Virus record (IMG/VR): IMGVR_UViG_3300037466_003065
Location: 96,001 to 160,000 of that record
Origin: a virus
Reading direction: 5' to 3' (one strand)
DNA: 64,000 bases
Made by a program: the position numbers and the translations under genes. How positions within the stretch are numbered: the stretch's first letter is position 1; each line of letters begins with the position of its first letter. The notes beneath the pieces are model-generated. The model was not told where the DNA came from. It made no database searches and saw nothing but the letters and a program-made list of their open reading frames with translations. Shown here one piece after another: positions 4,609-64,000 of this stretch.

Positions 4609-4961
4609 CGTGGCACCTCCGTGGCTTCGTAGTATTCGGGGGGCGGGAACTTCTCGGGGTGCTCGCCGTCGTAGCTCTTGGGCGGCTCCCGGAACTGGAT
4701 CGGCACCTGCTTCAGGGCTAGTAACGATTCGCGGACGGCCTCGATCTCCTTCTTGGAGAAGCGGTCGAAGTCCGTCCACTCGTCGCACGCCTTCAGGCTG
4801 AAGTCGATGTCGTCGTCGTCGAAGTTCTCGTCCTCCCATACGATGTGGGACGGGCCCCAGCGCAGGGCATCGGAGGAGTCGTTCAGCTTCTCGACGGCCG
4901 CCTTGTAGATGTCGACGACGCGACGTGCCCATCCCCAGTGACAGAACCAACAGATGCTCAT
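4605..4961 (-). CDS. conserved phage hypothetical protein
   Basis: MSICWFCHWGW...GPSHIVWEDENF; GGGAGGCATC RBS. Confidence 0.75.
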   Translation of the reverse strand: MSICWFCHWGWARRVVDIYKAAVEKLNDSSDALRWGPSHIVWEDENFDDDDIDFSLKACDEWTDFDRFSKKEIEAVRESLLALKQVPIQFREPPKSYDGEHPEKFPPPEYYEATEVPR

Positions 4962-4978
4962 GATGCCTCCCAAAAGAA

Positions 4979-5002
4979 GGGCCCGCCCCGAAGGGCGGGC
5001 CC
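4979..5002 (-). terminator. intrinsic terminator
   Basis: 10-bp GC stem GGGCCCGCCC with UUCG loop, followed by UUCUUUU on the minus strand. Confidence 0.85.
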
Positions 5003-5027
5003 ATTTGTTGCGGGTTGACGGACGGGC

Positions 5028-5801
5028 TTAGGCGCCCTTCGGGGCGTCCAGCTTGGTGTCCGTGGAGATGACCCCGCGGCTCTTCATCAGCTCCTCCACC
5101 TTCCGGCGGGCGTCCGCGTTGGCGATCTCGCGATCCTCGGCCACCCGATTCCGGCGAGCTGCGGCAGCCGTATCGACGACGGCAGGGGCGCGGCGGGTGT
5201 CGGTGCGCTGACGTAGACGCTCCATCGCCTCGGCGAGCTGGCTGCTCTCGGAGGACAGGTCGAGGCTGGTGCTCACCGCATTGTTGGCCTCGTCGGCCTT
5301 GGCGAGCTCGTCGTTGCTGACCAGCTCCTTGAGCTGCTCGCGCTGCAGCTCGTAGTCCTGCTGGGCTTGGGTGGCCTCGGCCTGCGATGCCTCGAACTGC
5401 TTGTTGGCGTTGGCCAGCGACTCCTCGGCCTGGTGCAGGGCCTCGGTCTTCATGTCGAGCTGACGCTGGGCCTCGGTGGCACCGTCAACGTCGTTCTTGC
5501 CCATGCGGTGGTTGCGGCGACTCTCCCACTCCTTCACGTCGGCGAGAAGGTCGTTGACCTTCCGCTGGCGGCTCTCGAGGGTAGCCCAGTACGTCTGCCG
5601 ACGCTTGGCCGCGTCGTCCATCTTGTCCTTGATCTGGGACAGGATGCCCTGAGCTTGCGTGGCCGGGTCGACCTTGTCCAGCTTGGTGCCGTAGCCGTGG
5701 GCGAGGTTGCGGAGGGACTGGGCGGCGCCGCCGGGGCCCCGCACCTTGGTGTAGAGGATGATGCCGACGATGACGAGAACGATAAAGATGATGAGATACA
5801 T
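5028..5801 (-). CDS. PspA/IM30-like coiled-coil protein with N-terminal transmembrane anchor
   Basis: Hydrophobic N-terminus MYLIIFIVLVIVGIILY followed by ~200 aa of heptad coiled coil resembling PspA; AAGGAG RBS. Confidence 0.65.
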   Translation of the reverse strand: MYLIIFIVLVIVGIILYTKVRGPGGAAQSLRNLAHGYGTKLDKVDPATQAQGILSQIKDKMDDAAKRRQTYWATLESRQRKVNDLLADVKEWESRRNHRMGKNDVDGATEAQRQLDMKTEALHQAEESLANANKQFEASQAEATQAQQDYELQREQLKELVSNDELAKADEANNAVSTSLDLSSESSQLAEAMERLRQRTDTRRAPAVVDTAAAARRNRVAEDREIANADARRKVEELMKSRGVISTDTKLDAPKGA

Positions 5802-5821
5802 TGTGCGTTGCTCCTTGGGGG

Positions 5822-6583
5822 TTAGTAACTGATGCGTTCCGGGTTGATCTCGATCCCCTTGTAGATCTCGACGTAGCTGGTCTTGGCGTCCTGTTCGACG
5901 AACACGAACTCGTTGACCTTGTTGCCTCCTTCGGTGGTTGTTTCGCGGGAGAAGTCCCACAGCTTGAGCCGGTGCCGGCGGGCCGCCGCCAGGCCCTTGC
6001 CGTGCGGCCGGAACGAGACCGACTTGCAGCCGTGCGGGGCGTGGACGCCCTTGGCCCGCCAGTACGTGGCGGTAATGTCCTTGCTCTCGTCGTCAAACTC
6101 CACGAACTTGCCGGTGTTGTCGTCCTCGCGCTCGAGGAGGGCCGCCATCAGGTCGCGGAAGTCCTTGTGGTCGGCGCCCAGTTCGTCGTGCAGGCGGCAG
6201 ATCACGTAGTCGAACTCCATCTCCCCGCCACCCAGATCCTTCGGGAAGATCCGCAGCACGAGCCGGTTGGCGCTGAAGACTTGGGTCAGCATGTAGTCGG
6301 TGAACGGGTATACATCCTCGTGGATCTGCTCGACCGACCGCACCTGGCTGACCACGTAGTCGCCGCCATAAAGGGGGTGGTCGATCGTGATCTTCGCCTG
6401 CATACCCTTCGTCATCTTCCCGATCGCGTGCACCGGATCCTCGAACCGGTATTCGTTGTCGCCGCTGGTCTTCACGGTGACATTGTGGGCGTCCGCGGGC
6501 GTCGCGGCTGGCTTGCCCTTGAACAGCTCCTTCACGTTGGCGCCGATCCATCCGGCGAATGTGCGTCCTTTGAGCGATGCCAC
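5822..6583 (-). CDS. beta-rich protein, tentatively DUF4178/YjfK-like PspA partner
   Basis: 253-aa ORF next to the PspA-like gene. The family call rests mostly on context. Confidence 0.55.
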   Translation of the reverse strand: MASLKGRTFAGWIGANVKELFKGKPAATPADAHNVTVKTSGDNEYRFEDPVHAIGKMTKGMQAKITIDHPLYGGDYVVSQVRSVEQIHEDVYPFTDYMLTQVFSANRLVLRIFPKDLGGGEMEFDYVICRLHDELGADHKDFRDLMAALLEREDDNTGKFVEFDDESKDITATYWRAKGVHAPHGCKSVSFRPHGKGLAAARRHRLKLWDFSRETTTEGGNKVNEFVFVEQDAKTSYVEIYKGIEINPERISY

Positions 6584-7184: not shown

Positions 7185-7517
7185 CTACGCCTTTCCTGCC
7201 ACATCCCCCTTTCCACAGACCAGGACGGTCACCTCGCCTCGATGCGCTGCACAAAGGAACTCTTGCAACGGGCGACGGTTGGCGTCGTCCCAAGGCCCGT
7301 CGTCGAACTTGAGCTCATACCGGTATGGGACGGTCGGCACGTGCCTCATATCGTCCTGGTTCGTGAAGTAGACATTAACGCGGGAGTCGTCGGCAACGAC
7401 CGGGTAGTAGGTGGGTCTAAACGAGTGCACGCGGAACCCTTCACCCTCGGGGGTCTGGCCATCGGGCACGAAGCGGATCCGCACTTGGTGCGGCAAGTAC
7501 ATCGGCGTGTCCTTCAT
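7185..7517 (-). CDS. hypothetical protein
   Basis: Start MKDTPMY overlaps the upstream stop. Confidence 0.6.
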   Translation of the reverse strand: MKDTPMYLPHQVRIRFVPDGQTPEGEGFRVHSFRPTYYPVVADDSRVNVYFTNQDDMRHVPTVPYRYELKFDDGPWDDANRRPLQEFLCAAHRGEVTVLVCGKGDVAGKA

Positions 7518-8023
7518 AGCTCGACCACCCCCAGTCCCACGTTGTAGCTGGGGATCGGCGGGTGCATGAGCTTCTGGATCCGCTCGACGCTGGTCACCCG
7601 GTACAACTTGCCGGTGTACGGGTTGCTGGTCGGGCGAGCGTTGCGGCCCCACTGGAACACGACCGTCTTCCCGACGATGTCAACCATGTCCAGGTCGGCG
7701 TCCTGCTCCCGCATGTCGACGATCCAGATGGTGCCGCGACCCTGCGTCACGAAGACGTCGTCCACCCGAAGTAGGAGCACGCCGCAGATCTGTCGCTCGG
7801 CCGGCGTGAGGTAGGGCAGGGCCGAGCGGCGGATCTCCTCCAGCATCGCGGCGGTCATGCCGCCGCCGCCCAGCTTGGGGGTGAGCATGCGGTAGAGGCG
7901 GGCTGACCAGCGACCCAGGCCGATGGGGTCGTCATTGATCAGAGAGCACGGATTTGACCCACCGCTCGGCGTCTCGGCCGTCCACCCAGTATTTTGAGAG
8001 GTCGGTTCTGTCTTCGATTCCAT
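7514..8023 (-). CDS. hypothetical protein (start uncertain)
   Basis: ORF track; the C-terminal two-thirds look protein-like. Confidence 0.5.
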   Translation of the reverse strand: MESKTEPTSQNTGWTAETPSGGSNPCSLINDDPIGLGRWSARLYRMLTPKLGGGGMTAAMLEEIRRSALPYLTPAERQICGVLLLRVDDVFVTQGRGTIWIVDMREQDADLDMVDIVGKTVVFQWGRNARPTSNPYTGKLYRVTSVERIQKLMHPPIPSYNVGLGVVEL

Positions 8024-8121
8024 CGATCGTTTTCTCCAGTAAGTGTAGTGACCGGTGCGTGAAGTTGATCGTCCGCTCGATGCGGTCGGTGCCGACCTCG
8101 CGGACGTGGATCTTCCCGCAG

Positions 8122-9270
8122 CTATTCTTCTTCCTCTGCTTCCTCGTCGGTGTCGTCGTCCCCATCGTCGTCCTCGTCTTCCAGTGATTCTTCCTGGTCG
8201 TCTTCCTCATCGAAGTCCTCCTCCTCGTCTTCGAAGCCGATCTCCTCGCGACGGTCTTGCTCCTCGTCCGGGTCGAGGCCAAGGCTTTCGTCGAGCAGCT
8301 CGACATCCGGCTCGTCCTTGACGTAGTTGTCTGCCAAGAACCTGATGACCTCGTTCCAGTTCTCGGCGACGCCGGCCAGGAGCTGCTTCTCGCGAGCCTC
8401 CTTCGTGAGGAGCTTGTTGAACTTCTCGTTGCTCCGCAGCGGCTCGACGGCCTCCCGGATCAGGCGGTCGAGGATCGTGGGCTCGAGCGCGTCCAACTCC
8501 CAGCTCTCCTCGCCGTGGAGGCGGATGTACTCCTTCGCCCGCGGATCCTTGATCTTGGCCGGGTTCGGCGGGGGGTTGTAGACGTCGACCTGGTCGCGGT
8601 TCAACGCGATCCGCTTGACCTCCAGCCTTCGACCCTGCCGTCCCATGAACTGCCGCGTACGCTCGATGATGTCGCGGGTCATGTCGATGCCGCTGGGGTC
8701 GTGGTCGCCGAGGTGGACGATCACGGGGATGTGTCCCTCGTCCACCAGATTCTTCAGCCGCTGTGCGTTGTTCCACATGGCGGTCTGTGAGACGTACCCG
8801 CGGCACGAGAAGAACGGGATGTCGAGCTCGCGGCAGGGGCGGCCGATCACGCCCTCGAGCGCGTCCTTCTCGACATAGACCTCGGGGCGGTAGAGCTGAT
8901 CCTCCCACTTGTTGATCAGGTACTGCTGGGCGACCGCGTTCACGATCGACTGCGGGCTCGACCAGTGGCTGTTGCCGTCCATCTCGCGGGTGCGATCCTC
9001 GATGGCGTTCCAGTCGATCAGGCCGGCCATGCGGCCGTAGTTCACAATGTCCCCGAGCTTCTTGTACGTCTTCGGGTTGTTCGTGCTGCCGTACTTCGGA
9101 TCGAAGTAGCGTTCGTCGAACCAGTCCCGAGCAACAAACTGATAGTAAACCTGCCGGAGCGTCAGGTTGTAGCCCTGCCGCTTGTAGCTGTTCACCACCT
9201 GGTTGACCTTCTGGATCATGTCCAGGTGATGCTTCGAGAACTTCTTGTTGATGTACTTGATCTTGGGCAT
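8122..9270 (-). CDS. Topoisomerase VI-A/Spo11-like TOPRIM protein with acidic tail
   Basis: wHTH motif TLRQVYYQ, EVYVEKDA, CRGYVS, HLGDHDPSG (TOPRIM DxD), KRIALN, WELDALEP; about 50-aa D/E tail. Confidence 0.8.
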   Translation of the reverse strand: MPKIKYINKKFSKHHLDMIQKVNQVVNSYKRQGYNLTLRQVYYQFVARDWFDERYFDPKYGSTNNPKTYKKLGDIVNYGRMAGLIDWNAIEDRTREMDGNSHWSSPQSIVNAVAQQYLINKWEDQLYRPEVYVEKDALEGVIGRPCRELDIPFFSCRGYVSQTAMWNNAQRLKNLVDEGHIPVIVHLGDHDPSGIDMTRDIIERTRQFMGRQGRRLEVKRIALNRDQVDVYNPPPNPAKIKDPRAKEYIRLHGEESWELDALEPTILDRLIREAVEPLRSNEKFNKLLTKEAREKQLLAGVAENWNEVIRFLADNYVKDEPDVELLDESLGLDPDEEQDRREEIGFEDEEEDFDEEDDQEESLEDEDDDGDDDTDEEAEEEE

Positions 9271-9650
9271 TACTTGTCCTCCTTGAAGTGATCCGCGATC
9301 GCCTTGTGCACCGCGGTTCCCAGTTCGGTGGCGGCCGGACTGACGTTGTATCCGACGATCCGGTCGGACTCCTCGATCATCTTGAGGGCCACATCCATCT
9401 CGGCCGGGTCGATGTCGATCGCCTCGGCCAGCTTCACCCCGTACGACTCAGCGATCTTCGGGTCGAGATCCATCTCCGTGGCGACGTAGATGATGGGGAT
9501 GCCGCGGTCTTTCGCGGCCTGTATCGCCATCATCTGGTAGTGCATGTTGCCGCGAGGCTCAAGAAGTCTTGGCAGGGCGCCGGCGTCGCACATCACCTCC
9601 TTGGGGATGCCGCTGGGGAACAGCCGCTTTAGGTCTTCTGCTGTGGTCAT
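9270..9650 (-). CDS. hypothetical protein
   Basis: 126-aa ORF with AGGAGG RBS. Confidence 0.65.
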   Translation of the reverse strand: MTTAEDLKRLFPSGIPKEVMCDAGALPRLLEPRGNMHYQMMAIQAAKDRGIPIIYVATEMDLDPKIAESYGVKLAEAIDIDPAEMDVALKMIEESDRIVGYNVSPAATELGTAVHKAIADHFKEDK

Positions 9651-21683: not shown

Positions 21684-22049
21684 TTAAGTGTGACGTGGTG
21701 GAGGGGCAGGGATAGTCGTCCTCAGCCATGCCTCCATCTCTTCGAAGTCTTGGCGTCGAATCTCGGGAACCGCATGGTGCTCGAGCTGACAGATTTGATC
21801 TACCTCCTCCTGGTTGAGGTCGAACCACTCACCGATGACGCGACGATGTTGGAACTCCTGATGAATCAGCACTTCCAGGAGTGTGTAGTCCCAACTGAAC
21901 CAGAATCCGATGAGTTCGTGCCGGATACCTGTACCCCGGTCGTAGTCACGCATGCGATTGGCGATCCTGAAGGCGCGTCCGACCTTGTACCAACCGGTCA
22001 CTGGTGAACGAATGAGGTAGACGAAGCCTCCGCACGGCGTCAGCCGCAT
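21684..22049 (-). CDS. T5orf172/GIY-YIG-superfamily protein
   Basis: GFVYLI...YKVG...R...LE..IH......R..GEWFDL. Confidence 0.8.
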   Translation of the reverse strand: MRLTPCGGFVYLIRSPVTGWYKVGRAFRIANRMRDYDRGTGIRHELIGFWFSWDYTLLEVLIHQEFQHRRVIGEWFDLNQEEVDQICQLEHHAVPEIRRQDFEEMEAWLRTTIPAPPPRHT

Positions 22050-22759
22050 TAGCGAGCGGCGTGGAATGCGCCGTATGCGATCGCGGCTAGGATCGGGCTC
22101 GTCTTGATGCTTGACTTCGCCAGCAGGCTCTGCTGTACGGGAGTGAGTCGCTCCCAGACGATCTCTCGCAGGGCTGCGGCTTCGTCGTCGGTGAGGGCTT
22201 TGGCCCATTCTTTTACCTCCTGTGATGGCGCCGCTGTCGTAGATCTACTCTCTAATGCTCTATCTCCGGATTTAGATCTATCTCCTTCTAGTAGTGAGGT
22301 TTCGCGTAGGCGGGAATTTCCCATTGATGACTTCTTCTCATCAGCGGGAATTTCCTGTTGGCGGGAAATTCCTTTTGGGTGAGACCGAGGGTACTTCTGA
22401 GCTTCCTGCACAACCCAAGAAGGGTGCCTCTTACCCTTGTAGCCACGAGAGACCTTCTTTAGGATGGTTGACTCCTCCAGCTCGACGAGTGCCCGGTAAA
22501 CTGACGATTGATCAAGCCCGCTGAAACGCATGATGGTTTCTACGCCGGGCCATGCCTGACCTCCTTCTGCCTCATTGGCGAACTTTGCCATTACACCTAA
22601 AACGCCCCGGGCGGCCGGGGTTAAGACTGCCCACCAGCCGGTTTCAAACCAGCTATGGTACATCTTGAACCACCAGCCATCCCGGGGCTTTGCTCGGAAC
22701 TCAAGCTCCTGATCGGTTACGATCGCGTACCGATGGAGTCGCTCTGGATCTTGGGCCAC
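22049..22759 (-). CDS. helix-turn-helix replication-initiator-like protein
   Basis: LTPAARGVLGVM..FAN....AWPGVETIMRFSGLDQSSVYRALVELE, typical of phage initiator N-termini; low-complexity linker; lower GC. Confidence 0.65.
   Translation of the reverse strand: MAQDPERLHRYAIVTDQELEFRAKPRDGWWFKMYHSWFETGWWAVLTPAARGVLGVMAKFANEAEGGQAWPGVETIMRFSGLDQSSVYRALVELEESTILKKVSRGYKGKRHPSWVVQEAQKYPRSHPKGISRQQEIPADEKKSSMGNSRLRETSLLEGDRSKSGDRALESRSTTAAPSQEVKEWAKALTDDEAAALREIVWERLTPVQQSLLAKSSIKTSPILAAIAYGAFHAAR
22310..22372. repeat. three 12-bp repeats GCGGGAA(T/A)TTCC inside the initiator-like gene
   Basis: Copies at 22310-22321, 22344-22355 and 22361-22372, next to an AT-rich stretch at ~22250-22300. Confidence 0.7.
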
Positions 22760-53848: not shown

Positions 53849-54151
53849 TTATGCCCCCGCGGCAGTGTTGAGGATCTTCTCGAAGACGTGACGCAGGTGT
53901 GCGGGGGCTCCGAGCATGACCTTCGCGGCCTCCTCATGCTCGCCAACGCACAGGTCTTCGAGCTCTTGTTTGCCGAGCGTGGCTAGCCACCCGTCCAAGG
54001 ATAAGGCAACGTCGAACGACATGTCGCCCAGATCGATGCGCAGGCGATCCAGTTCTTTCTTTTCGGTGGTGAGGCGGTTGATGGCCCCTTGGTCGCACAT
54101 GATCAGCAGCACGGCCTTGGCCAGGCTGGGGAGGCGTTTGAACTCGATCAC
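53849..54151 (-). CDS. hypothetical protein
   Basis: WL..L...EL..LC.GE motif; AAAGGAG RBS. Confidence 0.7.
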   Translation of the reverse strand: MIEFKRLPSLAKAVLLIMCDQGAINRLTTEKKELDRLRIDLGDMSFDVALSLDGWLATLGKQELEDLCVGEHEEAAKVMLGAPAHLRHVFEKILNTAAGA

Positions 54152-54169
54152 CGATTCATCTCCTTTCGT

Positions 54170-54478
54170 TTACTTGACGACGTTGGTGGATATGAACCCG
54201 CGGGTGCCCAGGATGCGGTTGGCGTACATCAGGTTGTTGTGGTCGCCCTTGCGGATCGCCTCGTCGGCCTTGGCGGCCCACTCGAGGTAGAGCAGGGACA
54301 TCGCTACGTTGCCCTCCCGCTCGAGTGATTCGGCGTACGCCAGCATGCCCGCGGCCGCGTTGGTGAGGTTGGCGTACAGGCGGGTGTGTGGGGCGTGCTC
54401 GTGCAGCGGCCGGGGCCGGGCCTGCTGTTCCATGGCTTCTCGCAATGATCCTCGCAGGTGGTATGGAAGCTCAGCCAC
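54170..54478 (-). CDS. hypothetical protein
   Basis: GTG start after AAGGAGG. Confidence 0.65.
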   Translation of the reverse strand: MAELPYHLRGSLREAMEQQARPRPLHEHAPHTRLYANLTNAAAGMLAYAESLEREGNVAMSLLYLEWAAKADEAIRKGDHNNLMYANRILGTRGFISTNVVK

Positions 54479-54761
54479 GTTGGGCCTCCTTTCGAATCAA
54501 CAACCACGGTGCGTTCACGCTCGTCCAGATCCTCACGATGATCTGGCCGCCCGTGTGCATCATGATGGACTTCTCGTGCTCGGTCTCCTCGAGCACGGAC
54601 TCGTAGCCTGGCCGGGGCACGCGGGGCAGGCCGTGGGCCTTGGCGATCTTGCCCGCCCGCTGTGGCAACTCCATCAGGGCGCCGCCGGTGGTGATGTAAT
54701 TGAACGCCTTCTCCAGCTCGGCCGGGGACAGCATGGCTTCGACCTTGAGCGGTGTACGCAT
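54471..54761 (-). CDS. hypothetical protein
   Basis: 96 aa; AAAGGAGA RBS. Confidence 0.7.
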   Translation of the reverse strand: MRTPLKVEAMLSPAELEKAFNYITTGGALMELPQRAGKIAKAHGLPRVPRPGYESVLEETEHEKSIMMHTGGQIIVRIWTSVNAPWLLIRKEAQRG

Positions 54762-54824
54762 AGGTCTCCTTTCGATTGTGCTTGCGCGGGGGCCCGCGGA
54801 GCGTTCCCCACCTCAGACAGGACA

Positions 54825-55148
54825 TCACTCCTCCTCAATGGGAGCCAGCACCATAGTAATCCTGGCCCACCTCCCGTAACGCTCCCTCATCTGCTGGGCG
54901 ATGCTCTCCAACTCGCCGAGGTCTCTGATCTCTTTGTCCTCGGTGTGGACTTCGCGGTCGTCGGATAAGGCGGGGATGACGACGGTGACGGTGAGCTTCT
55001 GCATGGGGCTCTCCTTGCTGGCATGATCGAGCAGGTAAGTGATCAGGTCGGCGTTGGAGTCGAGGTGGTGCTTGGTACGGATGGCCTCGACCCGATCCCG
55101 GATCGCGTTGCCTGGGTCGCTGATCTCGATGGTGTAGCGGTTCAGCAT
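54825..55148 (-). CDS. possible ribbon-helix-helix DNA-binding protein
   Basis: N-terminal beta-helix-helix pattern YTIEIS...IRDRVEAIRTKHHLDSNADLITYLLD; no obvious SD. Confidence 0.5.
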   Translation of the reverse strand: MLNRYTIEISDPGNAIRDRVEAIRTKHHLDSNADLITYLLDHASKESPMQKLTVTVVIPALSDDREVHTEDKEIRDLGELESIAQQMRERYGRWARITMVLAPIEEE

Positions 55149-55480
55149 AACTGTACTCGTAACAGTAATATCTCAGACCGACTGTACTGGTAATCTGTAC
55201 TGGTTTGTCGTAACTCCTTTGGTGATATGGACTTGTGTAGGATGCCCCGGTACATCGCCTGTGCTGTAACCCCTTGTGGTTCCTCCAGTTATGAGTGGTG
55301 TGTGCAAGTCGTGGTGGTGGCGGTGGTTACGTGAGGTTGCGAAGAGTTGTGATCGTTGGTTGACATGGACTTAGGTACAGATGGGTGTGGCCGGGGCATA
55401 CAGGGCACGCTACCCCACCAATACCCGAACCCGCCACCTGACCCCGCGTCGGCATCCCATGCTACCATACCGCTACGCAC

Positions 55481-55848
55481 TGTCCCAATTCTGCGACATG
55501 ATCCTCTGCACATTACTGCTGGACGTGTCCCAATTCTGCGACAGCAACCGTGGCATGGTTACCAACTGTGCTGTCCCAATTCTGCGACACCTACCAAACT
55601 GTACTGTCGCAGTTCTGCGACACCTACCACGGTGCGTGCACGCGGGCACTGTCCCAATTCTGCGACACTCATCACGACGTGTGTGCAAAGGTGGTGTCGC
55701 AAAACTGGGACACTGTCCCCGCACTATTACATGAGGGGGTGTCCCAATTCTGCGACAGTGAACCACACACCGTTACACATCATGGTGTCCCAATTCTGCG
55801 ACAGTGTTCATCATGTGATTACGCAGCAGGTGTCCCAATTCTGCGACA
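55481..55848. repeat. array of nine 18-bp quasi-palindromic repeats (consensus TGTCCCAATTCTGCGACA) with 27-28-bp spacers
   Basis: Copies start at 55481, 55526, 55572, 55605, 55650, 55695 (inverted), 55740, 55786 and 55831. Period is 45-46 bp except one of 33 bp. Confidence 0.95.
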
Positions 55849-55864
55849 CGTAATCCCTACCCCA

Positions 55865-56065
55865 TTAGTCCGGCAGTGTGAACCGGTGGGCGTGCTTCAT
55901 GCTGTGCCACCACACCGGTCGGCTCTTGTTGGTGCGGAGGATGAGGATCGTGATGTTGAGGCTCTGGCCCCCGCCGTCCTCCATCGCGACGCCCTGGATC
56001 AGCACCTCCTCGTTCAGATCCAGTCGGAGTAGAGCAGGCGAGTACGCCACCGCATCGCGTTGCAC
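55865..56065 (-). CDS. small hypothetical protein (possibly frameshifted from an ATG at 56091)
   Basis: IQGVAMEDGGGQSLNI resembles a phage motif. The strong RBS precedes an out-of-frame ATG. Confidence 0.4.
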   Translation of the reverse strand: MQRDAVAYSPALLRLDLNEEVLIQGVAMEDGGGQSLNITILILRTNKSRPVWWHSMKHAHRFTLPD

Positions 56066-56140
56066 AGATCCATGAAGTCTGCGTTCTGCATGAGATGCTC
56101 CTCGAAGTGAAAGTGTGTTGCCCCCGCCGGCCTGTTTCGA

Positions 56141-56359
56141 TTAGGGCTTGACCTTGAACGTCTGCACCGCCACCCAGTCCCCGCCGGCCTCCTCCACCCA
56201 GTGCAGCGTGCCTTCCTTACGCTTCCAGGTGCCGGCCCGGCTCTCGCTGGCCATGAACTGCTCGGCCGCCGTCCGGGCGCCCTTCAGGGACGCGTGAACG
56301 CTGACCGGGCTCCCGCCCCCGCCCAGCTCGCCGCTGACCACGATATGCACGCTCGTCAT
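56141..56359 (-). CDS. small hypothetical protein
   Basis: 72 aa; AAAGGAGCATC RBS. Confidence 0.75.
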   Translation of the reverse strand: MTSVHIVVSGELGGGGSPVSVHASLKGARTAAEQFMASESRAGTWKRKEGTLHWVEEAGGDWVAVQTFKVKP

Positions 56360-56451
56360 CTGATGCTCCTTTCGGATAGAGGGTCTGTACAGGGAGGCGC
56401 CCAGGGCCGTTCACCCAGGTGCTCCCCAGTGCGGGCCCTCCGGCCTGCACG

Positions 56452-57006
56452 TTATGCCGCCTCGTACTGCCCCCGGTTCATGTGGTAGCGGAACATCTGT
56501 TTGTCGTGGCGACGGATGCGACGCACCTTACGCTGCTCGGCGCGGCGGGCCGCCTTCTTGCCGTCGATGTTCCAGCCCCCGCCGATGAACTCGGACGAGA
56601 TCTTGCGACGCAGCTCGAAGTCCCGCGGGGCCGTGTTGCTGCGGTAGGTCACCGAGGTCACGATCTCCTCGTCGCCGCTGTCCATCTCGTGCACCTGGTC
56701 GTCGTACTGCTTCTGGTCGATGCCGCCGGGGTACGAGAAGCCGGTGATCATCTCGGCCTCCCGGACGTAGAAGCCCGACCGGATCGCCCAGCAGAACACG
56801 ACGGCGTAGCTGCCCCCGCGGTCGTCGATCTCGATGGGCGCCTTGGGCTCGTCCTCCAGGCCCCACGTGCAGTGCCGCTGCCCCACCTCGCGGAGGTACA
56901 TGAGCTTCAACTGCTGCTCGGCGTAGGCGATGGCCTGCTCCTTGGACACCGCGATCTTGACGCCGCCGCAGACCTCGTACCCGTCGTACATTTGCACGCT
57001 GAACAT
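56452..57006 (-). CDS. hypothetical protein
   Basis: Start MFSVQM after AAGGAG; basic C-terminus. Confidence 0.7.
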   Translation of the reverse strand: MFSVQMYDGYEVCGGVKIAVSKEQAIAYAEQQLKLMYLREVGQRHCTWGLEDEPKAPIEIDDRGGSYAVVFCWAIRSGFYVREAEMITGFSYPGGIDQKQYDDQVHEMDSGDEEIVTSVTYRSNTAPRDFELRRKISSEFIGGGWNIDGKKAARRAEQRKVRRIRRHDKQMFRYHMNRGQYEAA

Positions 57007-57092
57007 TGGCAGACTCCTTGTAGCAGGAACTTGTATCAGGACTTGTACACGAACTTGTACAGATTCCCCCGACCCCTTCATGAGATGGGATG

Positions 57093-57395
57093 CTACGCCG
57101 CGAAGACGAGGCAGCCGCTGTGGGGCTGGGTCTCGACCCGCCGGCCGTAGCAGGTGAGGTAGTCGTAGACGCTGCGGTGGGTGATGTGGGGCTCCTTGCA
57201 CATGCCGACCAGCCCCGGCACGTTCCACACCGACAGCTCGAACTCGTGGAACTCGGAGCTGGGCCGATGGTAGGCCACGACGATGCAGGTGGTGGCCCAC
57301 TTGCCCAGGTCGCAGAACGTGGCGTGCTGGTGGGCTTGGACGTGCTGCTCTTCTTCGACGCTCATGACTGAGCGGAGTAGGGACGTGTGACGCAT
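57093..57395 (-). CDS. hypothetical protein
   Basis: 100 aa; AAGGAGCATC RBS. Confidence 0.65.
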   Translation of the reverse strand: MRHTSLLRSVMSVEEEQHVQAHQHATFCDLGKWATTCIVVAYHRPSSEFHEFELSVWNVPGLVGMCKEPHITHRSVYDYLTCYGRRVETQPHSGCLVFAA

Positions 57396-57419
57396 GTGAT
57401 GCTCCTTGAAGAGGAGGGT

Positions 57420-57953
57420 TTACCTGACGGGCTTGACGACGCGGCTGTTGTGCTGTTCGAACTCCCGAACCTTGTAGGCCGAGTTGGGGTAGAGCCGCAG
57501 GAAGTTGCGACGCTTGGCCTCGTAGCTTTCCTCGACGTTCACGCCCACCCTGTTCTGGAGGATCAGGATGTGGATGCGGTTCAGCTCACGGAGCTTCATC
57601 GCCTCGTGCTGGAAGTCTCTGGCCCGCCCCTTGGCGATCGGTTTGTAGAAGCAGGGATTCTGCTTCGGAGGCTTGGGGCTGCGAGGGCCCTTGCAGCCCG
57701 GCGTCCGCGGCCCGTGGTGCCACGGCGTGGCCTTCAACATCCGCGGCGTGATGCTGACGGTGGACTTGATGCCCAGGCCCACCGGCCCGCCGGCCATGTG
57801 GGGCTTGAGCACGCCGATGTACTCGACCCGGCGCCGGGCACTGGCCTGGGACATGCTCAGGCCGTGCACCTTCGGAGACGGGACGGGGAGCACGCGGCAC
57901 TTCGGGTGGGGCGTGCGGGAGTCGTACACTTTCTCTTTCATGGCATCACCCAA
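57420..57953 (-). CDS. basic hypothetical protein
   Basis: 177 aa, Arg/Lys/Pro-rich. Confidence 0.55.
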   Translation of the reverse strand: MGDAMKEKVYDSRTPHPKCRVLPVPSPKVHGLSMSQASARRRVEYIGVLKPHMAGGPVGLGIKSTVSITPRMLKATPWHHGPRTPGCKGPRSPKPPKQNPCFYKPIAKGRARDFQHEAMKLRELNRIHILILQNRVGVNVEESYEAKRRNFLRLYPNSAYKVREFEQHNSRVVKPVR

Positions 57954-58347
57954 TGCGGTTGAACCGGAACTCGAAGCCGAGGAAGTTGTCGCGGAGCACG
58001 CTGATGCGGGCCTTCGCCTCGTCGAGGGTGTAGCCGGCTTCGACCATCGTCCAGGTGCCGGCGCCGGGGCAGCACTCGGGGATCTGCTGTTCGATCTTGT
58101 AGCGGATCGGCTCGTGCTTCAGCTCCTCCCGCTTGATCTGTTCGGCGAGCTGGGCGCAGTCCCTGCTGCTGAACCCGGCGATCAGGCAGCAGCCGTGCAG
58201 CCGCCGCATCTGCTCGATGGTGCGGCAGGGGACGTACAGCACCTCGTCGACGAGCGTCCAGGTCAGCTCGTTGCGCTCGAGGTGTTCCGACAGACGACAG
58301 GTCTCCTCCTCACCGAGCTTGGAGATGTCGATCGTGAACGTGGTCAT
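57946..58347 (-). CDS. hypothetical protein
   Basis: 133 aa; AGGAGG RBS. Confidence 0.7.
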   Translation of the reverse strand: MTTFTIDISKLGEEETCRLSEHLERNELTWTLVDEVLYVPCRTIEQMRRLHGCCLIAGFSSRDCAQLAEQIKREELKHEPIRYKIEQQIPECCPGAGTWTMVEAGYTLDEAKARISVLRDNFLGFEFRFNRIG

Positions 58348-58375
58348 AAGACCTCCTGTGTTGGAGACGAAAGAA

Positions 58376-58400
58376 GCCGGCGGGTTTGCGGCCCGCCGGC
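58376..58400 (-). terminator. intrinsic terminator
   Basis: 9-bp stem GCCGGCGGG / CCCGCCGGC followed by UUCUUU on minus. Confidence 0.75.
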
Positions 58401-59694
58401 CCCGGTGTACACGATGCTGTCCCGTAGGTCGCTCCAGTTCCCTGTTGCCAGGAGGATTGCGTTATCACCTCATCGTGTCGCTCCCCGGGCATTGCCGGGG
58501 CTGTTGCCTCAGACCCTCCGCGGTCTCCAGTGCGGAGGTGGTCTGTGTCGTCCTACCGTCTCACCCATTGGGCAACGAGAGCTGGGGGCAGGATCGTGGA
58601 CAATGCCACGTCCAACCCAGCCCGCCCCTGCTCCACGGTGTGTTGTGGGCCTGGGCATCTCTGGGAGTACGGCGAAGCGAGCCACCACTGCACGCCGGTC
58701 GGCGTTCTCGACGGGATCTGTGCCTCTGCTACGATCGATCAGTCACGCCCCCATGCGATGGGTCTTTAGCCCTTGCGGCTGGGCATCGGTCACGATCGTG
58801 GCAGGCAAACAGCACGCCCGTCACCCACGCGGCTTGCTAGGCCGAACGGGCGAACGGAGACGACTGCATGCAGCTCATGCTCGCTTCTGTGCTTTCGCTA
58901 GTGCGGCTTTACGCCCGCGTTGCTCCCTTCGGACTCCGCGATACCTTCCGCTGTCGTCCCAGCTCGGGGCTGGTTCTGCGACAGACCACGATCCTTCAAC
59001 GTGCTCGCCTAGCGGGGCCAGGGGCCTGGCCACAAGCCAGACCGCCGCAAGTGGCGTTCCTGCTTTAAATCACGCATCGGCACAAGACCGAAGGTAGGGA
59101 ACGCCCCAAGGCATCAACTCACACTGGGGATCGTGGTCAACGGTACGTCACGCGGCGTCCTCTGGACGCGTCAGAACCGCGGGCGTCGTCACGACGTGCC
59201 GCGGGCCGTTTCAAACCACACTACTACTCACCAAGGTATTCAGAGTCATGTCCCATTCGGGCAGTCCCAACCACACAGTCGGAACATCCGTTTGGGGCTC
59301 GTTTATCACCTTGCCCTTTTGCACCGCGTTACCGGTGCGTTTTAAGGTCGTTTCTTGAGGGTAACGACCCTGAGCAACTTTACACCACCGGAACTATCCC
59401 GCATCCACCGGCCATGAACCCCCGAAGGGGCGGATGGGCGGCTTCCGCTGATAGCCCGCTATGGGCCACCGACCCGGCTCGCCTTGCGAGCTTTGCGAGG
59501 TTGGCTTCCGCCATTCAAGAACCCACCTAGTGGGCGTGCTGTCCGATTCTCAGCACCCGCTGAACGTGGTTCCCGACGAATCGGGGCGACGTTGAGCAGT
59601 CGACCATTGGGGCCGACGCTTGCACCGCAGTCTCTACCGCGTGCAAGGCATCACCTTTGGCCAGTGGCTACCACCGGCCGCAGGGTTTGATTAG
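58401..59694 (-). ncRNA. candidate large structured non-coding RNA (3' portion), unassigned class
   Basis: No credible ORF over ~1.3 kb. More than 15 hairpins, UUCG loops on minus at ~59420 and ~59575, GAAA/GCAA/GUAA loops, and an 11-bp long-range stem (58984-58994 with 59128-59138). Ends at a terminator. Confidence 0.55.
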
Positions 59695-60559
59695 GACAAG
59701 CGAATAGGCACTGTGAGACCCCCGAGCTGGACACTACAAACGACCCCCTTCACTCACGACTACTCCCGAACCACGACCCGGCAGAACTGCGCGGCCGTTT
59801 CCGACCGGTTCAGCAGAACCTGCTCGAAGGCCAAGTCGACGGGCTTGGTTGCCCCGTCGATGGTCTTGACCGACCCGCCGGACAGCGCCCGCACCGCGTT
59901 CATCGCGGCCGGCACGCGGCCCCACGCCCGGTTGACCCACTCCTGCGCCTTCATGAAGTGCTTCGCCACCTCCTCTTTCTTTGCGGCGACCCACTTCTCC
60001 ACCAGCGCCGCATCCTGCGGCTTGACCTCGACGGTGCCGATCTTGCCACCGTCCTTACGGGCGAGCGCCTCGGCGTCAATCGCCTTGAGGCGAGCGTCGC
60101 GGTGCGCCTCAAGTGCGGCCAAGACCTCCACGGTGGGGATCTTGGCGAGGAACCCTTGCGTCACGGTGCGAGCCTTCATGGGCTTGCCACCGTTGCGAGC
60201 CTTGCAGCACGCCTTCACGGCCGACCCGAGCATCGGGCCGGCGCCCGTCCCCTTGTCGAAGATCCCGAAGATCAGGGCATACGCCGCGGCGCTGGTGCGC
60301 TTGCGGAGTTCGCCCATGTCGGCCTTGCGGAGGTCTTGGAGGTTCTGGGCCGTCGCATCGAGAACGAGAACATCCTCGTGCGAGAAGCCCAGCGCCTCAT
60401 CAATCGCCGCTGCCGCCTTCGAGACCGAACGAGAAGAAACTTTCGTGTCCTTAGCCATTGTCAACTCCCGCCGGAACCTGTCCGGCATGTTAGAGACCAA
60501 CAAACAGAACGATAGAACCAGAACCAGCTAAGGGGTCTCACAGTACCTATTCACTTGTC
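59695..60559. repeat. 28-bp inverted repeat pair flanking the ORF at 59760..60458
   Basis: 59695-59722 GACAAGCGAATAGGCACTGTGAGACCCC vs the reverse complement of 60532-60559, GACAAGTGAATAGGTACTGTGAGACCCC; 26/28 identical. Confidence 0.95.
59760..60458 (-). CDS. Ala/Lys-rich helical hypothetical protein nested in the inverted repeat
   Basis: Start MAKDTK after GGGAG; typical codon usage; no recognised family motif. Confidence 0.8.
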   Translation of the reverse strand: MAKDTKVSSRSVSKAAAAIDEALGFSHEDVLVLDATAQNLQDLRKADMGELRKRTSAAAYALIFGIFDKGTGAGPMLGSAVKACCKARNGGKPMKARTVTQGFLAKIPTVEVLAALEAHRDARLKAIDAEALARKDGGKIGTVEVKPQDAALVEKWVAAKKEEVAKHFMKAQEWVNRAWGRVPAAMNAVRALSGGSVKTIDGATKPVDLAFEQVLLNRSETAAQFCRVVVRE

Positions 60560-60830
60560 AAAGAACATGCCTGCGCACGCTCTAGTCGACGGTCGCTCTT
60601 TGCGTAGGGTATGGGCTTATCCCAATGGGGCACCTAGGCACGTACATCGCCTAGGGGTTCTACCCACGTTGACCGCTTGACGTCTCACGACGTAGGCGGG
60701 GTTCGGTGCGGCTGCCGCACCGTCAACGGGCATCGCGTTTTGTCCACCTAGACCCACGACACGCGGCGAACCGCGTAACGTGAGCGGGGGTTTCTCCCAC
60801 GCGACCCACACGAACACGACCGAAGATTTC
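60560..60830 (-). ncRNA. hairpin-rich non-coding segment (candidate 5' portion of the structured RNA)
   Basis: Stems CCTAGGC/GCCTAGG, GGTGCGGC/GCCGCACC and ACGCGG-UUCG-CCGCGT (minus), plus a GAAA-type loop near 60790. Confidence 0.45.
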
Positions 60831-61213
60831 AAAGAGCAACATCACGAGGCACCAGTTAGACGACTGCGGCGAATCCGGCAGAGGTGCGCGGGGTGGGGGG
60901 CTTTGGGATCGGGCGACCTGGTCGGCCTGGCCGACCTATATGGGCAGGCTTTCACATAAGGGTCAGGCCAAACTCAAAATGGGCGGGGGCCTCTCCCAAT
61001 CACATCTGCGAACATGGATCAGATCGAAGGGCGGGCTCGAAAATTAGGCGGGGGCCAGAGTCACATGACCATGACACAGGGGGCGGGGGTGGTCTGAGCT
61101 GGATCGAAAGGGGCGGGGGCGAGATGGGGTCGGTTCAAAATTTTACGGGGGAAGGGTCGAAATAATCAGGGGCATGTTCGGGTTTCTGTTGTTCCACTCA
61201 CAATTAGTTCTAC

Positions 61214-61606
61214 GTGGAACACGAGCTCATCCTTATGTTCCACAGGGGAACATCCGATGTCGGGGGCATGGATTTCAACACGGGCTACATCATGGGGCTG
61301 GTCGTTGGCGGGGGCTGCTTCACGATCCACCAGAACAAGAAGAGTGGGCAGGTCACACCGACGTTCAGCCTGAAGCTGCACGAGCGGGACTACCAGCCAC
61401 TACTCGACCTGCAGAAGCTGTTGGGAGGGACGATCTACGGGCCCTACAACCACCAGAAGCGGAAGTATCGGGCGCTCTTCGTGCGAGGGGCTGATCTGGC
61501 GAAGGCGATCCCTGTGTTCGACAACTACCTGCCGAAGAGCCACAAGAGGGATCAGTTCTCGGCTTGGTTGGAGCACGAACGGGTCAGGGTGCTGTGGCAG
61601 AAATGA
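61214..61606 (+). CDS. single-motif LAGLIDADG-fold protein, catalytic acidic residue missing
   Basis: GYIMGLVVGGGCF, then F.L.L...D...L..L...LGG.IY...R.....L...I.P.FD.YL..S.K..QF..W. Likely start is the ATG at 61268. Confidence 0.8.
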   Translation: MEHELILMFHRGTSDVGGMDFNTGYIMGLVVGGGCFTIHQNKKSGQVTPTFSLKLHERDYQPLLDLQKLLGGTIYGPYNHQKRKYRALFVRGADLAKAIPVFDNYLPKSHKRDQFSAWLEHERVRVLWQK

Positions 61607-61607
61607 A

Positions 61608-61688
61608 GGCCCAGAGGAGGGAGTCGAACCCTCGGTGCGTGTCAAGCACTAGCCGCTGCGTCCGTGCCGTTGGTAGACTTCACTGGGC
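61608..61688 (-). tRNA. tRNA-like element with degenerate anticodon arm (loop centred on CUA)
   Basis: Acceptor GCCCAGTG/CTCTGGGC (one mismatch), D-arm GTCT/GGAC with GG, canonical T-arm GAGGG-TTCGACT-CCCTC. The anticodon stem is bulged, U33 is absent and CCA is not encoded. Confidence 0.5.
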
Positions 61689-61841
61689 AGAAGAAACATC
61701 GGGCGGCCAAGGTCTTCTTCATGAACTGAGAGCTGCCTCACCGATAACTCTCCTGTCTCGCAGATCACCCACCTTCGAGACAAAGCCCGAACCCTGCGGC
61801 TACTCCCATGGTCGCATGGTTTTTCTTTGCGCATAAAAGAA

Positions 61842-61867
61842 CCCCGCTGTGTGGGTGATCAGCGGGG
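61842..61867 (-). terminator. intrinsic terminator
   Basis: CCCCGCTG / CAGCGGGG stem followed by UUCUUUU on minus. Confidence 0.7.
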
Positions 61868-61931
61868 CGCTTTCCCTACCCGACCGGGCCTGATAGCAAC
61901 ACACCACCAGGTGGGGATCCATGTCGGGCAG

Positions 61932-62177
61932 CTAATTCTGTGCTGCGTGCAGTGACGCGAGTAGCTCGTCGACGACGGCGGTTGTAATCGAGTTCCGGGC
62001 CTGACGCAACGCCTCGATCGCCTGGTCGATCTGGTCTACGTCAAGGGTGCCGTCGAACCCGAGCAGGGTGACCGTGAAGTGGGCGGCACTGGTGCCACTG
62101 GTCAGGGGGGACTGCTGGACGTGGGCCTCGAAGCCTCCGTGCATGATGAGCATGGCACTCCTTTGCTGAAGTGGCAC
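61932..62177 (-). CDS. small hypothetical protein (start uncertain)
   Basis: Amphipathic C-terminal helix; followed by a terminator. Confidence 0.5.
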   Translation of the reverse strand: MPLQQRSAMLIMHGGFEAHVQQSPLTSGTSAAHFTVTLLGFDGTLDVDQIDQAIEALRQARNSITTAVVDELLASLHAAQN

Positions 62178-62227
62178 GCATCATACCGGGGGCAACTATC
62201 ATGTCTATCAGAAATTTGTAGGGAGTT

Positions 62228-62809
62228 TTACCCGAGGCCAGTCTCGTGCGAGTCGAGACTCTCGTTCTCGCCACCGATCGAGAGCCGCAGGAAGTCGTGG
62301 GCACAAGGGCCGTCATGACCCTTGGTGCGGGTGCAGGCGGCATAGCCGGGCGTGGGAGGGATGGAGCCGCAACGGGGGAGGGGATGGGGCAGCTTGTGCG
62401 GAGCCGATAAAGCGGCGGGGTGGATACCCTCGACGTGGTTCGGGTCGAGGGTCGGCACCTCGACTCGCGGGGCCTCATACACTGCGGGAGCCAAGAAGCT
62501 GAACCCACGCCTGACCGTGACGGCCATGTTCTCCTGCTGCTCCTGCAGACCGGGAGGGAGCTCGATCTTCGCGCCGGGCAAGAACTTCTCCTTGAAGTAG
62601 GTATCCAGCCCCGCGAAATTTTCGATAGTCGCCGGAATCGTGACCCGCAGGCCGCACCGGTCGCAGAACAGCGCCTTCGCCGTCGCCGTCGTCTGGTGGC
62701 ACGAGACCAGGCCGCCGCAGGTGGTGTGGATCCCCGCGCCGAACGCGTTGATCTTCTCGTGGGGCATGCCGAACACCGACAACCGATCGCCGTCCGTGGA
62801 GATAATCAT
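62228..62809 (-). CDS. Cys/His-containing hypothetical protein
   Basis: H.TCGG...CDRCG and RC.......C....GHDGPC motifs; start MIISTD. Confidence 0.6.
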   Translation of the reverse strand: MIISTDGDRLSVFGMPHEKINAFGAGIHTTCGGLVSCHQTTATAKALFCDRCGLRVTIPATIENFAGLDTYFKEKFLPGAKIELPPGLQEQQENMAVTVRRGFSFLAPAVYEAPRVEVPTLDPNHVEGIHPAALSAPHKLPHPLPRCGSIPPTPGYAACTRTKGHDGPCAHDFLRLSIGGENESLDSHETGLG

Positions 62810-62854
62810 GGGGGCATTAGACCCGTAGGGAGAATTGCCTGCAAGGGGGTGATG

Positions 62855-62940
62855 TGTCCCATTTCTGCGACAGTCCCAGAACTGCGACAGTCCCAGTTTT
62901 GCGACAGGGTAGAAATCCCTGGTGTCGCAGAATTGGGACA
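62855..62940. repeat. second cluster of the 18-bp repeat: three abutting copies on a 17-bp period plus one inverted copy
   Basis: TGTCCCATTTCTGCGACA-GTCCCAGAACTGCGACA-GTCCCAGTTTTGCGACA (62855-62906) and TGTCGCAGAATTGGGACA (62923-62940). Confidence 0.9.
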
Positions 62941-63338
62941 CCGTTTCCTGCTCCGGCCAATAGCCCCCTCTTTATCCCTGACCCTGGCAGAGCGTGCCGG
63001 GCCAGTCGATATCTCCCCCTCTGGGGGATGGGGCATCTACCGGATGAGGGGTAGAGGGTGGTCTCGTTCGTCACCAGGAAAGGAGTCCGGGGCTTGGGTC
63101 AGGTCGTGGTTCGTCAGGGGGGAGACGTTGGCCACACTGGATTTAGTTGCCCGGGAAATCTGGTGCTTCGTGCTGACCCTGTAAAGGCACGGTTTCTGCC
63201 GTCCTAAGTATCTGCGCTTTCAGCCTGCGCTACGAGCGGACGGTCTCGACATGCTCGTCTTGACCACAATGGATTGTCTCGGGAGAGTCGGCTGGATGAT
63301 CCCCTCCACTTCAAAATTTTGAATTGCCCGGAAAGCTC

Positions 63339-63366
63339 TTGATAATCCCAAGGGGATTACTACGAT
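63339..63366 (+). promoter_or_regulatory. sigma70-type promoter for the plus-strand genes
   Basis: TTGATA-N16-TACGAT, ~70 bp upstream of the ATG at 63435. Confidence 0.5.
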
Positions 63367-63434
63367 GGCCTCGCCGCGTATGTGGCCCCGCCGACCTTTT
63401 GGTCGATGAAGATTTCGAAAGCCGGATTTAACGC

Positions 63435-63584
63435 ATGGAACTGACCCTGACCATCATTGGGCTCGTCGTCGCGATCTGTGTCGCCGCGTACCTCGGCGGC
63501 TGGTTCGGGCTGGAGGTCGCCTCCGACCTCTTCGAGGCCCTGTTCGAGATCATCGTGGCCATCTCGTGCGGAGACACCGAATGA
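63435..63584 (+). CDS. small membrane protein
   Basis: Translated by hand: MELTLTIIGLVVAICVAAYLGGWFGLEV..., 49 aa; its stop overlaps the next ATG. Confidence 0.6.
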   Translation: MELTLTIIGLVVAICVAAYLGGWFGLEVASDLFEALFEIIVAISCGDTE

Positions 63585-63793
63585 CCCAGGAACGTTTCGA
63601 CCGCCACGCCGAACGCCTCGACCGCGTCTTCCTCTGGGCCCTGGTCGTGGGCTTCACGTCGTTCATGGCCGCGTACCGGTGGCCCCGCCTGATCTGGGTC
63701 ACCGTCACCGCCGGCGGCGTCGTCTTCGGCGTCGTGCTGGCCGCCCTCGCACTCACGCTGGTGGCGACGCGAAGGGGGCTCCGCACGTGGTGA
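63581..63793 (+). CDS. small two-TM membrane protein
   Basis: MTQERF...two hydrophobic segments. Confidence 0.65.
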   Translation: MTQERFDRHAERLDRVFLWALVVGFTSFMAAYRWPRLIWVTVTAGGVVFGVVLAALALTLVATRRGLRTW

Positions 63794-64000
63794 AGCAATA
63801 CTCCCCCATCCGCTGGAACAAGGGTGCCGCCGGGGCCCACCTCCCGCTCTGGGGTGAAGACCTCGAGACCCTCCGGAGGCAATACCCGGTCGGCGCCACG
63901 GTCAGGTTTGCGATCAACGGCGTCCTGTACGAGGGGAAGATCTTGCAGGTCGCCGAGTGCTTCCCGTGCCGGGTCTGGGATCGCAGCGGCGAGGAGGAGA
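63790..64000 (+). CDS. hypothetical protein (partial, runs off window)
   Basis: The GTG overlaps the upstream TGA; open to the window end (..YPVGATVRFAING..). Confidence 0.5.
   Translation, partial: MKQYSPIRWNKGAAGAHLPLWGEDLETLRRQYPVGATVRFAINGVLYEGKILQVAECFPCRVWDRSGEEE

Follow-up and report, generated by a model that had tools for sequence, protein, structure and literature searches.

The window analysed here, a stretch of 64,000 nucleotides, corresponds to bases 96001-160000 of a 184,787-bp IMG/VR virus record (CheckV completeness 100%), which represents a virulent-looking, uncultured soil phage of 185 kb. A divergent gap in this window separates a leftward gene starting at 62809 from a rightward gene starting at 63435, and contains, at 62855-62940, three abutting copies of the motif TGTCSCA-N4-TGSGACA on a 17-bp period together with one inverted copy (cluster C). 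Further copies of the motif form array B in the same window and cluster A elsewhere in the genome. The features are listed below in window coordinates unless otherwise indicated, with site scores taken from a weight matrix.

62228..62809, minus strand: first leftward gene, a 193-aa orphan with a CxxxxC...CxxC zinc-ribbon-like motif
62816..62844, minus strand: promoter-like TTGCAG-17-TCTAAT, read by eye and missed by the strict scan
62855..62872, plus strand: site C1, TGTCCCATTTCTGCGACA, 31.1 bits, starting 10 bp upstream of the leftward promoter-like -35
62872..62889, plus strand: site C2, AGTCCCAGAACTGCGACA, 23.0 bits, with one base common to C1 and C2
62889..62906, plus strand: site C3, AGTCCCAGTTTTGCGACA, 29.2 bits, abutting C2
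62923..62940, minus strand: site C4, plus-strand letters TGTCGCAGAATTGGGACA, 34.1 bits, after a 16-bp gap from C3
63015..63027: hairpin or palindrome C5-N3-G5, CCCCCTCTGGGGG, one of two in the 185-kb genome
63319..63366, plus strand: sigma-70-like promoter sites TTGAAT-16-GATAAT and TTGATA-16-TACGAT
55481..55848: array B, nine copies of the motif, one of them inverted, with spacings of 45, 46, 33, 45, 45, 45, 46 and 45 bp
Genome 58032-58128, outside the window: cluster A, four copies, including a site with two mismatches at genome 58049

The three abutting copies, their 17-bp period and the inverted copy lie exactly where the initial annotation had placed them. In the 17-bp period of C1-C3, the last A of each site doubles as the first base of the next one, while the minus-strand reading of C4 is the exact array B consensus TGTCCCAATTCTGCGACA, of which TGTCGCAGAATTGGGACA is the reverse complement. 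Four 18-mers are thus packed into 86 bp, with the close spacing that characterizes iteron origins. Strand-matches to the motif with at most two mismatches numbered 28 in the window, against 0.74 expected and 5 in the largest shuffle; a lone site with two mismatches at 5624 is probably a chance match. Over the whole 184,787-bp record, 17 motif sites were found, all in clusters A, B and C, and a whole-genome scan with the weight matrix built from these 17 sites gave nothing above 12 bits outside them. The full-genome scan that the initial annotation had called for therefore shows no random scatter; however, the bipartite 9+4 layout that it had described is actually 4+9+4, since the cluster beside the initiator gene falls outside the window. 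When oriented, the sites are consistently asymmetric, with a TGTCCCA half, mostly an ATTC centre and a TGCGACA half, and none of the 17 has two C-type halves. The spacer-free tandem copies support the earlier suggestion that cluster C is, as predicted here, a set of protein-binding sites acting at the DNA level. Note that a GTG start at 62941, with which the cluster would be coding, was rejected because GC3 was ~0.61 over 44 codons (hand count) as against 0.8-0.95 in genes.

Clusters A and C are two paralogous copies of one module, as seen in their shared geometry, orientation and hairpin side. Indeed, both consist of three abutting sites, a gap of 16-26 bp, a fourth site and a hairpin 44-75 bp further on. 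In cluster A, two sites abut on the 17-bp period, the third follows directly and the fourth lies 26 bp on, all being oriented like C1-C3. The C5-N3-G5 element CCCCCTYYGGGGG is present exactly twice in the genome, 44 bp right of A and 75 bp right of C, against ~7 occurrences expected from base composition, and its reverse polarity has 0 occurrences. BLAST between the clusters detected no flank similarity beyond the 18-mers, and a MAFFT alignment of A and C suggested that the segments from the last site to the hairpin are weakly similar. Array B has unrelated spacers, is devoid of the C5-N3-G5 hairpin and sits in a 716-bp gap inside a minus block. In addition, an 18-bp GC palindrome CGCGCGGGCGCCCGCGCG lies at genome 58143-58160, between cluster A and its hairpin, whereas cluster C has none.

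Searches in other genomes gave few matches. An IMG/VR scan for TGTCCCA-N4-TGCGACA returned single chance matches and nothing more, and the abutting-junction pattern gave one chance match in IMG/VR, without further sites. The exact 18-mer was found in ~186,000 species genomes (596 Gb) as 9 single matches, about chance level, and in no cluster, so that a site family of host chromosomes is unlikely. Window 54000-64000 had no megablast match among GenBank phages or PLSDB plasmids.

Genome context and transcription signals

According to a gene map based on GC3 (genome coordinates), a plus block at 159.4-184.8 kb continues through 0-41 kb and encodes two sigma-70 region-4 proteins, RNase HII, the terminase and giant structural proteins. 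The other blocks are a minus block at 42-57.8 kb (class II ribonucleotide reductase, RecD2), a plus block at 58.3-90.6 kb (replication genes) and a minus block at 91.5-158.9 kb (mostly small orphan genes). Clusters A and C occupy the genome's two main minus/plus divergence gaps, and the orientation switch noticed near C in the initial annotation proved to be a real divergent gap. The two sigma-70 region 4 proteins are located right of C, at genome 160375-161517 and 162052-162747, before RNase HII and the terminase, and sigma factors of the phage itself are apparently encoded in the rightward operon from the C junction. Over the whole genome, AT content is highest (up to 0.75) 4.4 kb right of C, at genome 163250-163400; this spot carries a TTGCAT...ATGCAA palindrome with GATTAC, then a strong TTGATT-16-TACACT promoter-like site, and is probably a major rightward promoter region.

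Orphan genes, a LAGLIDADG protein and a non-coding RNA region are found between and around B and C, and no Rep signature was found among the genes there. A tRNA and Rfam search of the window found none. The 193-aa protein has no Pfam or PHROG match, and a search of IMG/VR found no relatives for either the 193-aa or the 247-aa gene beside C, the homologues of the 247-aa protein being on short JGI/Logan contigs only. The first genes left of A and C, encoding proteins of 191 aa and 193 aa, respectively, are not paralogues.

The leftward promoter-like site ends 6 nt before the ATG at 62809, which suggests that the mRNA of the 193-aa gene is probably leaderless, and the same -35 type is present beside cluster A (TTGCAC-17-TACACT and TTGCAG-16-TATGCT). 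On the right side, a copy of the genome's second palindrome family (ATAATC-N7-GATTAC, 63342-63360) overlaps the rightward promoter-like sites. The stretch beside C had been described as non-coding and partly AT-rich: the gap is indeed non-coding, but its AT-rich part is a promoter-like patch at 63310-63350, ~370 bp off. This patch is also the nearest AT-rich window to C, as no 40-bp window with AT >=0.55 was found within ~300 bp of C, while cluster A is adjoined by a weak AT-rich window, unlike the strong one of its relatives. When the 380-bp spacer (62941-63320) was folded as RNA, z was +0.59 and -1.25, giving no RNA-structure signal.

Cumulative AT skew has its minima at ~57 kb and ~160 kb of the genome, and GC skew flips at both, so that the inflection sought at C by the initial annotation is present. 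However, both skews track the coding strand, with a GC sign opposite to the bacterial leading-strand rule, and these inflections cannot count as origin evidence since they coincide with the gene-strand switch. Gene-fork co-orientation, calculated for a circular map with forks meeting midway, was 73% for A and C together, 76% for C alone and 31% for A alone, with a mean of 50% for random pairs, and does not discriminate.

Rep1, its relatives and Rep2

Cluster A sits between the leftward TTGCAC-17-TACACT promoter-like site and the Rep1/RecA/DnaB operon. The Rep1 gene (genome 58403-59458, 351 aa, start set from homologues) begins ~270 bp right of cluster A and is followed by RecA, a 499-aa orphan, DnaB, Toprim primase, SSB, RuvC, a PD-(D/E)XK nuclease, glycosyltransferases and a PHP domain, the latter being a PHP polymerase domain. 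Rep1 itself has no match above threshold in Pfam and PHROG. Its AlphaFold model comprises a winged helix (residues 22-105), a disordered Pro/Lys linker and a helical C-terminal domain, which is conserved. With VIA-align, the winged helix reached Z up to 9.7 to GntR/CRP-type winged helices, and a PDB profile search pointed to GntR, MarR and also a DnaD N-terminal domain; overall, Foldseek and VIA-align identified a generic winged helix and nothing for the C-terminal domain, for which Atlas gave sub-threshold matches to the T4 gp59 N-terminal domain, Phg_2220_C and the RepB C-terminus.

The profile search defined a Rep1 family of 208 representatives, of which 76 members were scanned against Pfam and PHROG. 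Pfam HTH_36 was matched by 24 of these 76, and the PHROG matches were 'replication initiation protein' (27), 'replication initiation O-like' (20) and 'DnaD-like helicase loader' (14), while other named PHROGs appeared in 3 of the 76 (primosomal protein 2, DNA-binding 1, HTH DNA-binding 1). The PHROG matches run through the N-terminal domain, and the closest relatives of Rep1 match replication-initiation PHROGs with E ~1e-3 to 1e-5. No match to Rep1 was found in GenBank phages (tblastn), in IMG/VR scans with query A1 or in the species genomes, and the 11 RecA-bearing IMG/VR loci were without Rep1. Rep1 is most likely the ligand of the 18-mers, in view of its adjacency to A, the pairing of repeats with Rep1 in relatives and the annotation of its family. 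This pairing is seen in two distant, syntenic relatives.

L121, a 15-kb metagenome contig: Rep1 homologue with 31% identity; five repeats TGTACCGCTG(T/A)CGCACAA at 5749-5884
L139, a locus of a 110-kb IMG/VR record (G002, 110,669 bp): five 7-4-7 sites at 4572-4666

In L121, where one repeat forms TGTCGCA-AATT-TGCGTCA, the order is repeats, AT-rich stretch (AT up to 0.75), GC hairpin, Rep1 and an intein-bearing RecA. The L139 sites read nnnCCCS-N4-YGGGACA (e.g., AGTCCCT-ATAT-CGGGACA) with periods of 21, 21, 14 and 21. Beyond them lie, in this order, an AT-rich stretch, a G6/C6 hairpin, Rep1, RecA and DnaB, and a dCMP deaminase is encoded leftward. In each of the two clusters, the core TGTC[CG]C was found 3 times, against 0.04 and 0.17 expected (P ~1e-5 and 7e-4, respectively). 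The Rep1 homologue is the only HTH_36-like frame (HTH_36 E 5e-4) in the 110-kb record, which is about half complete and has a single cluster; B and C may therefore be lineage-specific and not a general trait of the family. IMG/VR classes this record as a provirus, ~48% complete, and a correct call would mean that some members of the lineage may be temperate, in contrast to what the gene content of the present phage suggests. The terminase of this phage is ~26% identical to that of Bacillus phages, which means that it has no cultured relative. Note that GCGC-rich palindromes comparable to that of cluster A flank the AT-rich stretches of both relatives. In L121, the RecA (7230-9599) has an intein-like insertion containing a LAGLIDADG_2 domain, and another protein, of the LAGLIDADG_3 type (4062-5414), is encoded immediately left of the repeat cluster.

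A second initiator candidate, Rep2, is encoded in the window at 22049-22759 (minus strand, 236 aa); it is O-like, with matches to HTH_36 (E 3e-12) and phrog_270 (2e-11). The segment coding for its linker holds three genome-unique copies of GAAWTTCCCGC (22310-22320, 22344-22354 and 22361-22371), spaced by 34 and 17 bp, with an AT-rich stretch directly after. In lambda, the iterons and an AT-rich region are located inside the O gene (PMC7466680), and the same arrangement, with different iterons, is found in the Rep2 gene, which makes it a strong candidate for an active origin. The presence of this candidate lowers the chance that C fires. Rep2 is unlikely to be the ligand of the 18-mers.

Interpretation of cluster C and its alternatives

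The initial annotation had likened the locus to a P1-type iteron replicon, with cluster C as origin or operator and array B as an incA-like control locus. The P1 plasmid replicon comprises five origin iterons, repA and the nine-iteron incA, and the likeness is that a single site of ~18-19 bp, in mixed orientation, forms both a tight cluster and an array of nine copies. However, this phage has three clusters, two of them full copies of the module 100 kb apart, and Rep1 is not flanked by B and C but lies beside cluster A, 100 kb away from C; no rep gene is found beside B or C. The genome profile screen, in which positive controls gave matches and which divergent proteins could escape, found no ParB_N, AAA_31, tubulin, Phage_integrase, Resolvase, Peptidase_S24, Rep3_N or Phage_rep_O. 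The CbiA profile gave a sub-threshold match to the RecA P-loop only, and no CbiA-type ParA or CI-type repressor was found in the genome. With no Rep3, ParA, ParB, recombinase or S24 repressor, and hence no plasmid-prophage apparatus visible, the locus belongs neither with P1 oriR/incA nor with sopC-type centromeres.

Both SPP1 (oriL/oriR) and the lambda ori are closer than P1. The repeats bound by gp38 of SPP1 are located at two distinct origins, oriL and oriR (PMC6316719). As in this lytic phage, one initiator (gp38; here putatively Rep1) is associated with repeat clusters at two places, one at the initiator gene in the replication operon and one remote, intergenic between transcription signals, and a DnaB-type helicase is encoded downstream (PMC6316719). 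SPP1 differs by its direct repeats, its clear AT-rich unwinding element and the location of oriL inside gene 38, whereas the present phage has abutting pseudo-palindromes, a cluster C without an AT-rich element, a GC hairpin in the module and a third, nine-copy array. At the lambda ori, O dimers bind 4 iterons, each of them an imperfect 19-bp inverted repeat (PMC7466680), and cluster C likewise has about four close-packed iterons, 18-19 bp long and with imperfect inverted symmetry; Rep1, like O, has an N-terminal DNA-binding domain and a linker. In contrast, the O gene itself contains the lambda ori, which adjoins an AT-rich region; the present genome has no match to Pfam Phage_rep_O, and its lambda-like intragenic arrangement belongs to Rep2.

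Altogether, we favour, at roughly even chances, the reading in which C duplicates an iteron module bound by Rep1. The initiator-binding iteron module is a known kind of element; the function of C, namely the binding of Rep1 and an activity in replication, is inferred. Between the two roles proposed earlier, origin or operator, the idea of iterons and an initiator fits best, because the same sites occur upstream of an O-like protein heading the replication operon and two relatives keep this arrangement. Firing of C as an origin is put forward tentatively, since no AT-rich unwinding element adjoins it.

In such a module, Rep1 dimers would fill the abutting C1-C3 side by side, then C4, and with 17 bp per site they may spiral around the helix in a complex that would resemble, by analogy, the lambda O-some. 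The divergent promoters flanking C would leave the DNA there negatively supercoiled, and transcription close to the lambda origin is known to help initiation there (PMC3017604). Helicase could then be loaded at C, which would be a second origin, or a high-affinity Rep1 complex at C could couple replication to the early leftward promoter; alternatively, a stable Rep1 complex there might be a fork barrier or an initiator sink. Array B, whose nine sites are phased and lack the hairpin, would best fit a Rep1 reservoir, sink or barrier, and it may act as an initiator sink or as a handcuffing partner.

The position of the sites just upstream of leftward promoters speaks against this reading, as it would suit a transcription factor too. 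The main alternative, although unlikely, is that the 18-mers are operators or upstream activating sites of a phage transcription factor, not necessarily Rep1, which would switch two leftward operons: early genes from C and nucleotide-metabolism genes from A, array B being a roadblock or nucleation site in the early operon. Indeed, C1 starts 10 bp upstream of TTGCAG-17-TCTAAT and the centres of the four sites fall near -54, -71, -88 and -122; the start of cluster A is 46 bp upstream of TTGCAC-17-TACACT. A second palindrome family (GTAATC-N7-GATTAC) is present at promoters in both control regions, and the missing unwinding element at C is consistent with such a role. However, no C site overlaps a predicted -35 or -10 hexamer, as a steric operator would, the rightward promoter-like sites are ~380 bp off, and no promoter-like site was found beside array B. 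Nine phased copies and a conserved hairpin also exceed the needs of promoter control, and in three lineages the repeats co-occur with Rep1, for whose relatives nearly all matches are to replication-initiator families.

Rep1 could also bind C without C firing, either at a fork-stalling site like SPP1 oriR, where stalled forks would trigger the switch to recombination-dependent concatemer synthesis, or at an incA-like sink or handcuffing partner of B; we regard this as rather improbable. In its favour, both C and B are without an AT-rich element, gp38 at SPP1 oriR is proposed to stall forks (PMC6316719), and the RecA, RuvC, PD-(D/E)XK nuclease and RecD2 of the phage could process stalled forks. 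However, C copies the whole A module, including the hairpin, which suggests the same activity as A, and handcuffing copy control has no obvious use in a phage lacking plasmid and lysogeny genes.

Binding of the pseudo-palindromes by a homodimer of the 130-aa LAGLIDADG protein (window 61214-61606; Pfam LAGLIDADG_1 E 1e-11) is very improbable. Single-motif LAGLIDADG dimers bind ~20-bp pseudo-palindromes with a 4-bp centre, the gene is positioned between B and C, and the protein seems to be without the catalytic acid, its motif GLVVGGG missing the usual acidic residues. However, its gene is 100 kb away from cluster A, the 110-kb relative carrying TGTCCC-type repeats lacks a homologue, the LAGLIDADG proteins of L121 are unrelated to it, and the sites are consistently asymmetric (C-type half, ATTC, G-type half). 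Finally, a sopC/parS-type partition centromere for a plasmid-prophage state is scarcely credible: the F sopC centromere has phased units with one inverted-repeat site each, and array B resembles it by its phased ~45-bp units, each with one inverted repeat, but its spacers are unrelated, cluster C is spacer-free, a tight, abutting arrangement at divergent promoters is unlike a centromere, and no SopA/SopB-type proteins, ParB_N, AAA_31 ParA, tubulin/TubZ, integrase or S24 repressor were found in the genome.

If Rep1 binds these sites, they would provide a natural case of multi-site initiator control outside plasmids, whereas, if they belong to a transcription factor, they would point to the master switches governing the early and middle operons. 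A broader possibility, which we hold to be of low probability, is that one virulent phage combines two initiator/origin systems, a lambda-type one (Rep2) and a two-module one (Rep1), in which the nine-iteron array would time or limit Rep1; if true, titration of an initiator by iterons would be at work in a lytic phage rather than a plasmid. To our knowledge, the origins of large uncultured phages have almost never been mapped. The present sequence yields a testable set composed of an initiator family (~200 metagenomic representatives), its probable recognition core TGTC[CG]C, two complete modules of sites and an array apart from them, to which the second, lambda-like origin candidate of the same genome can be added, and the module may be used for locating origins in related metagenomic phages.

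Occurrence in soil samples

Among public runs, in which assembled contigs hold the phage and no RNA data set was listed, it is present in at least 11 soil or rhizosphere studies. The contigs of one run (X9) span B and C unchanged, and the contigs from public runs gave one spacer SNP in array B, at 55517, a single variant being too little for a selection test. In addition, a contig of run X9, from one soil sample, carries a 6-nt in-frame deletion at window 62677 in the 193-aa gene, with cluster C unchanged on the same contig.
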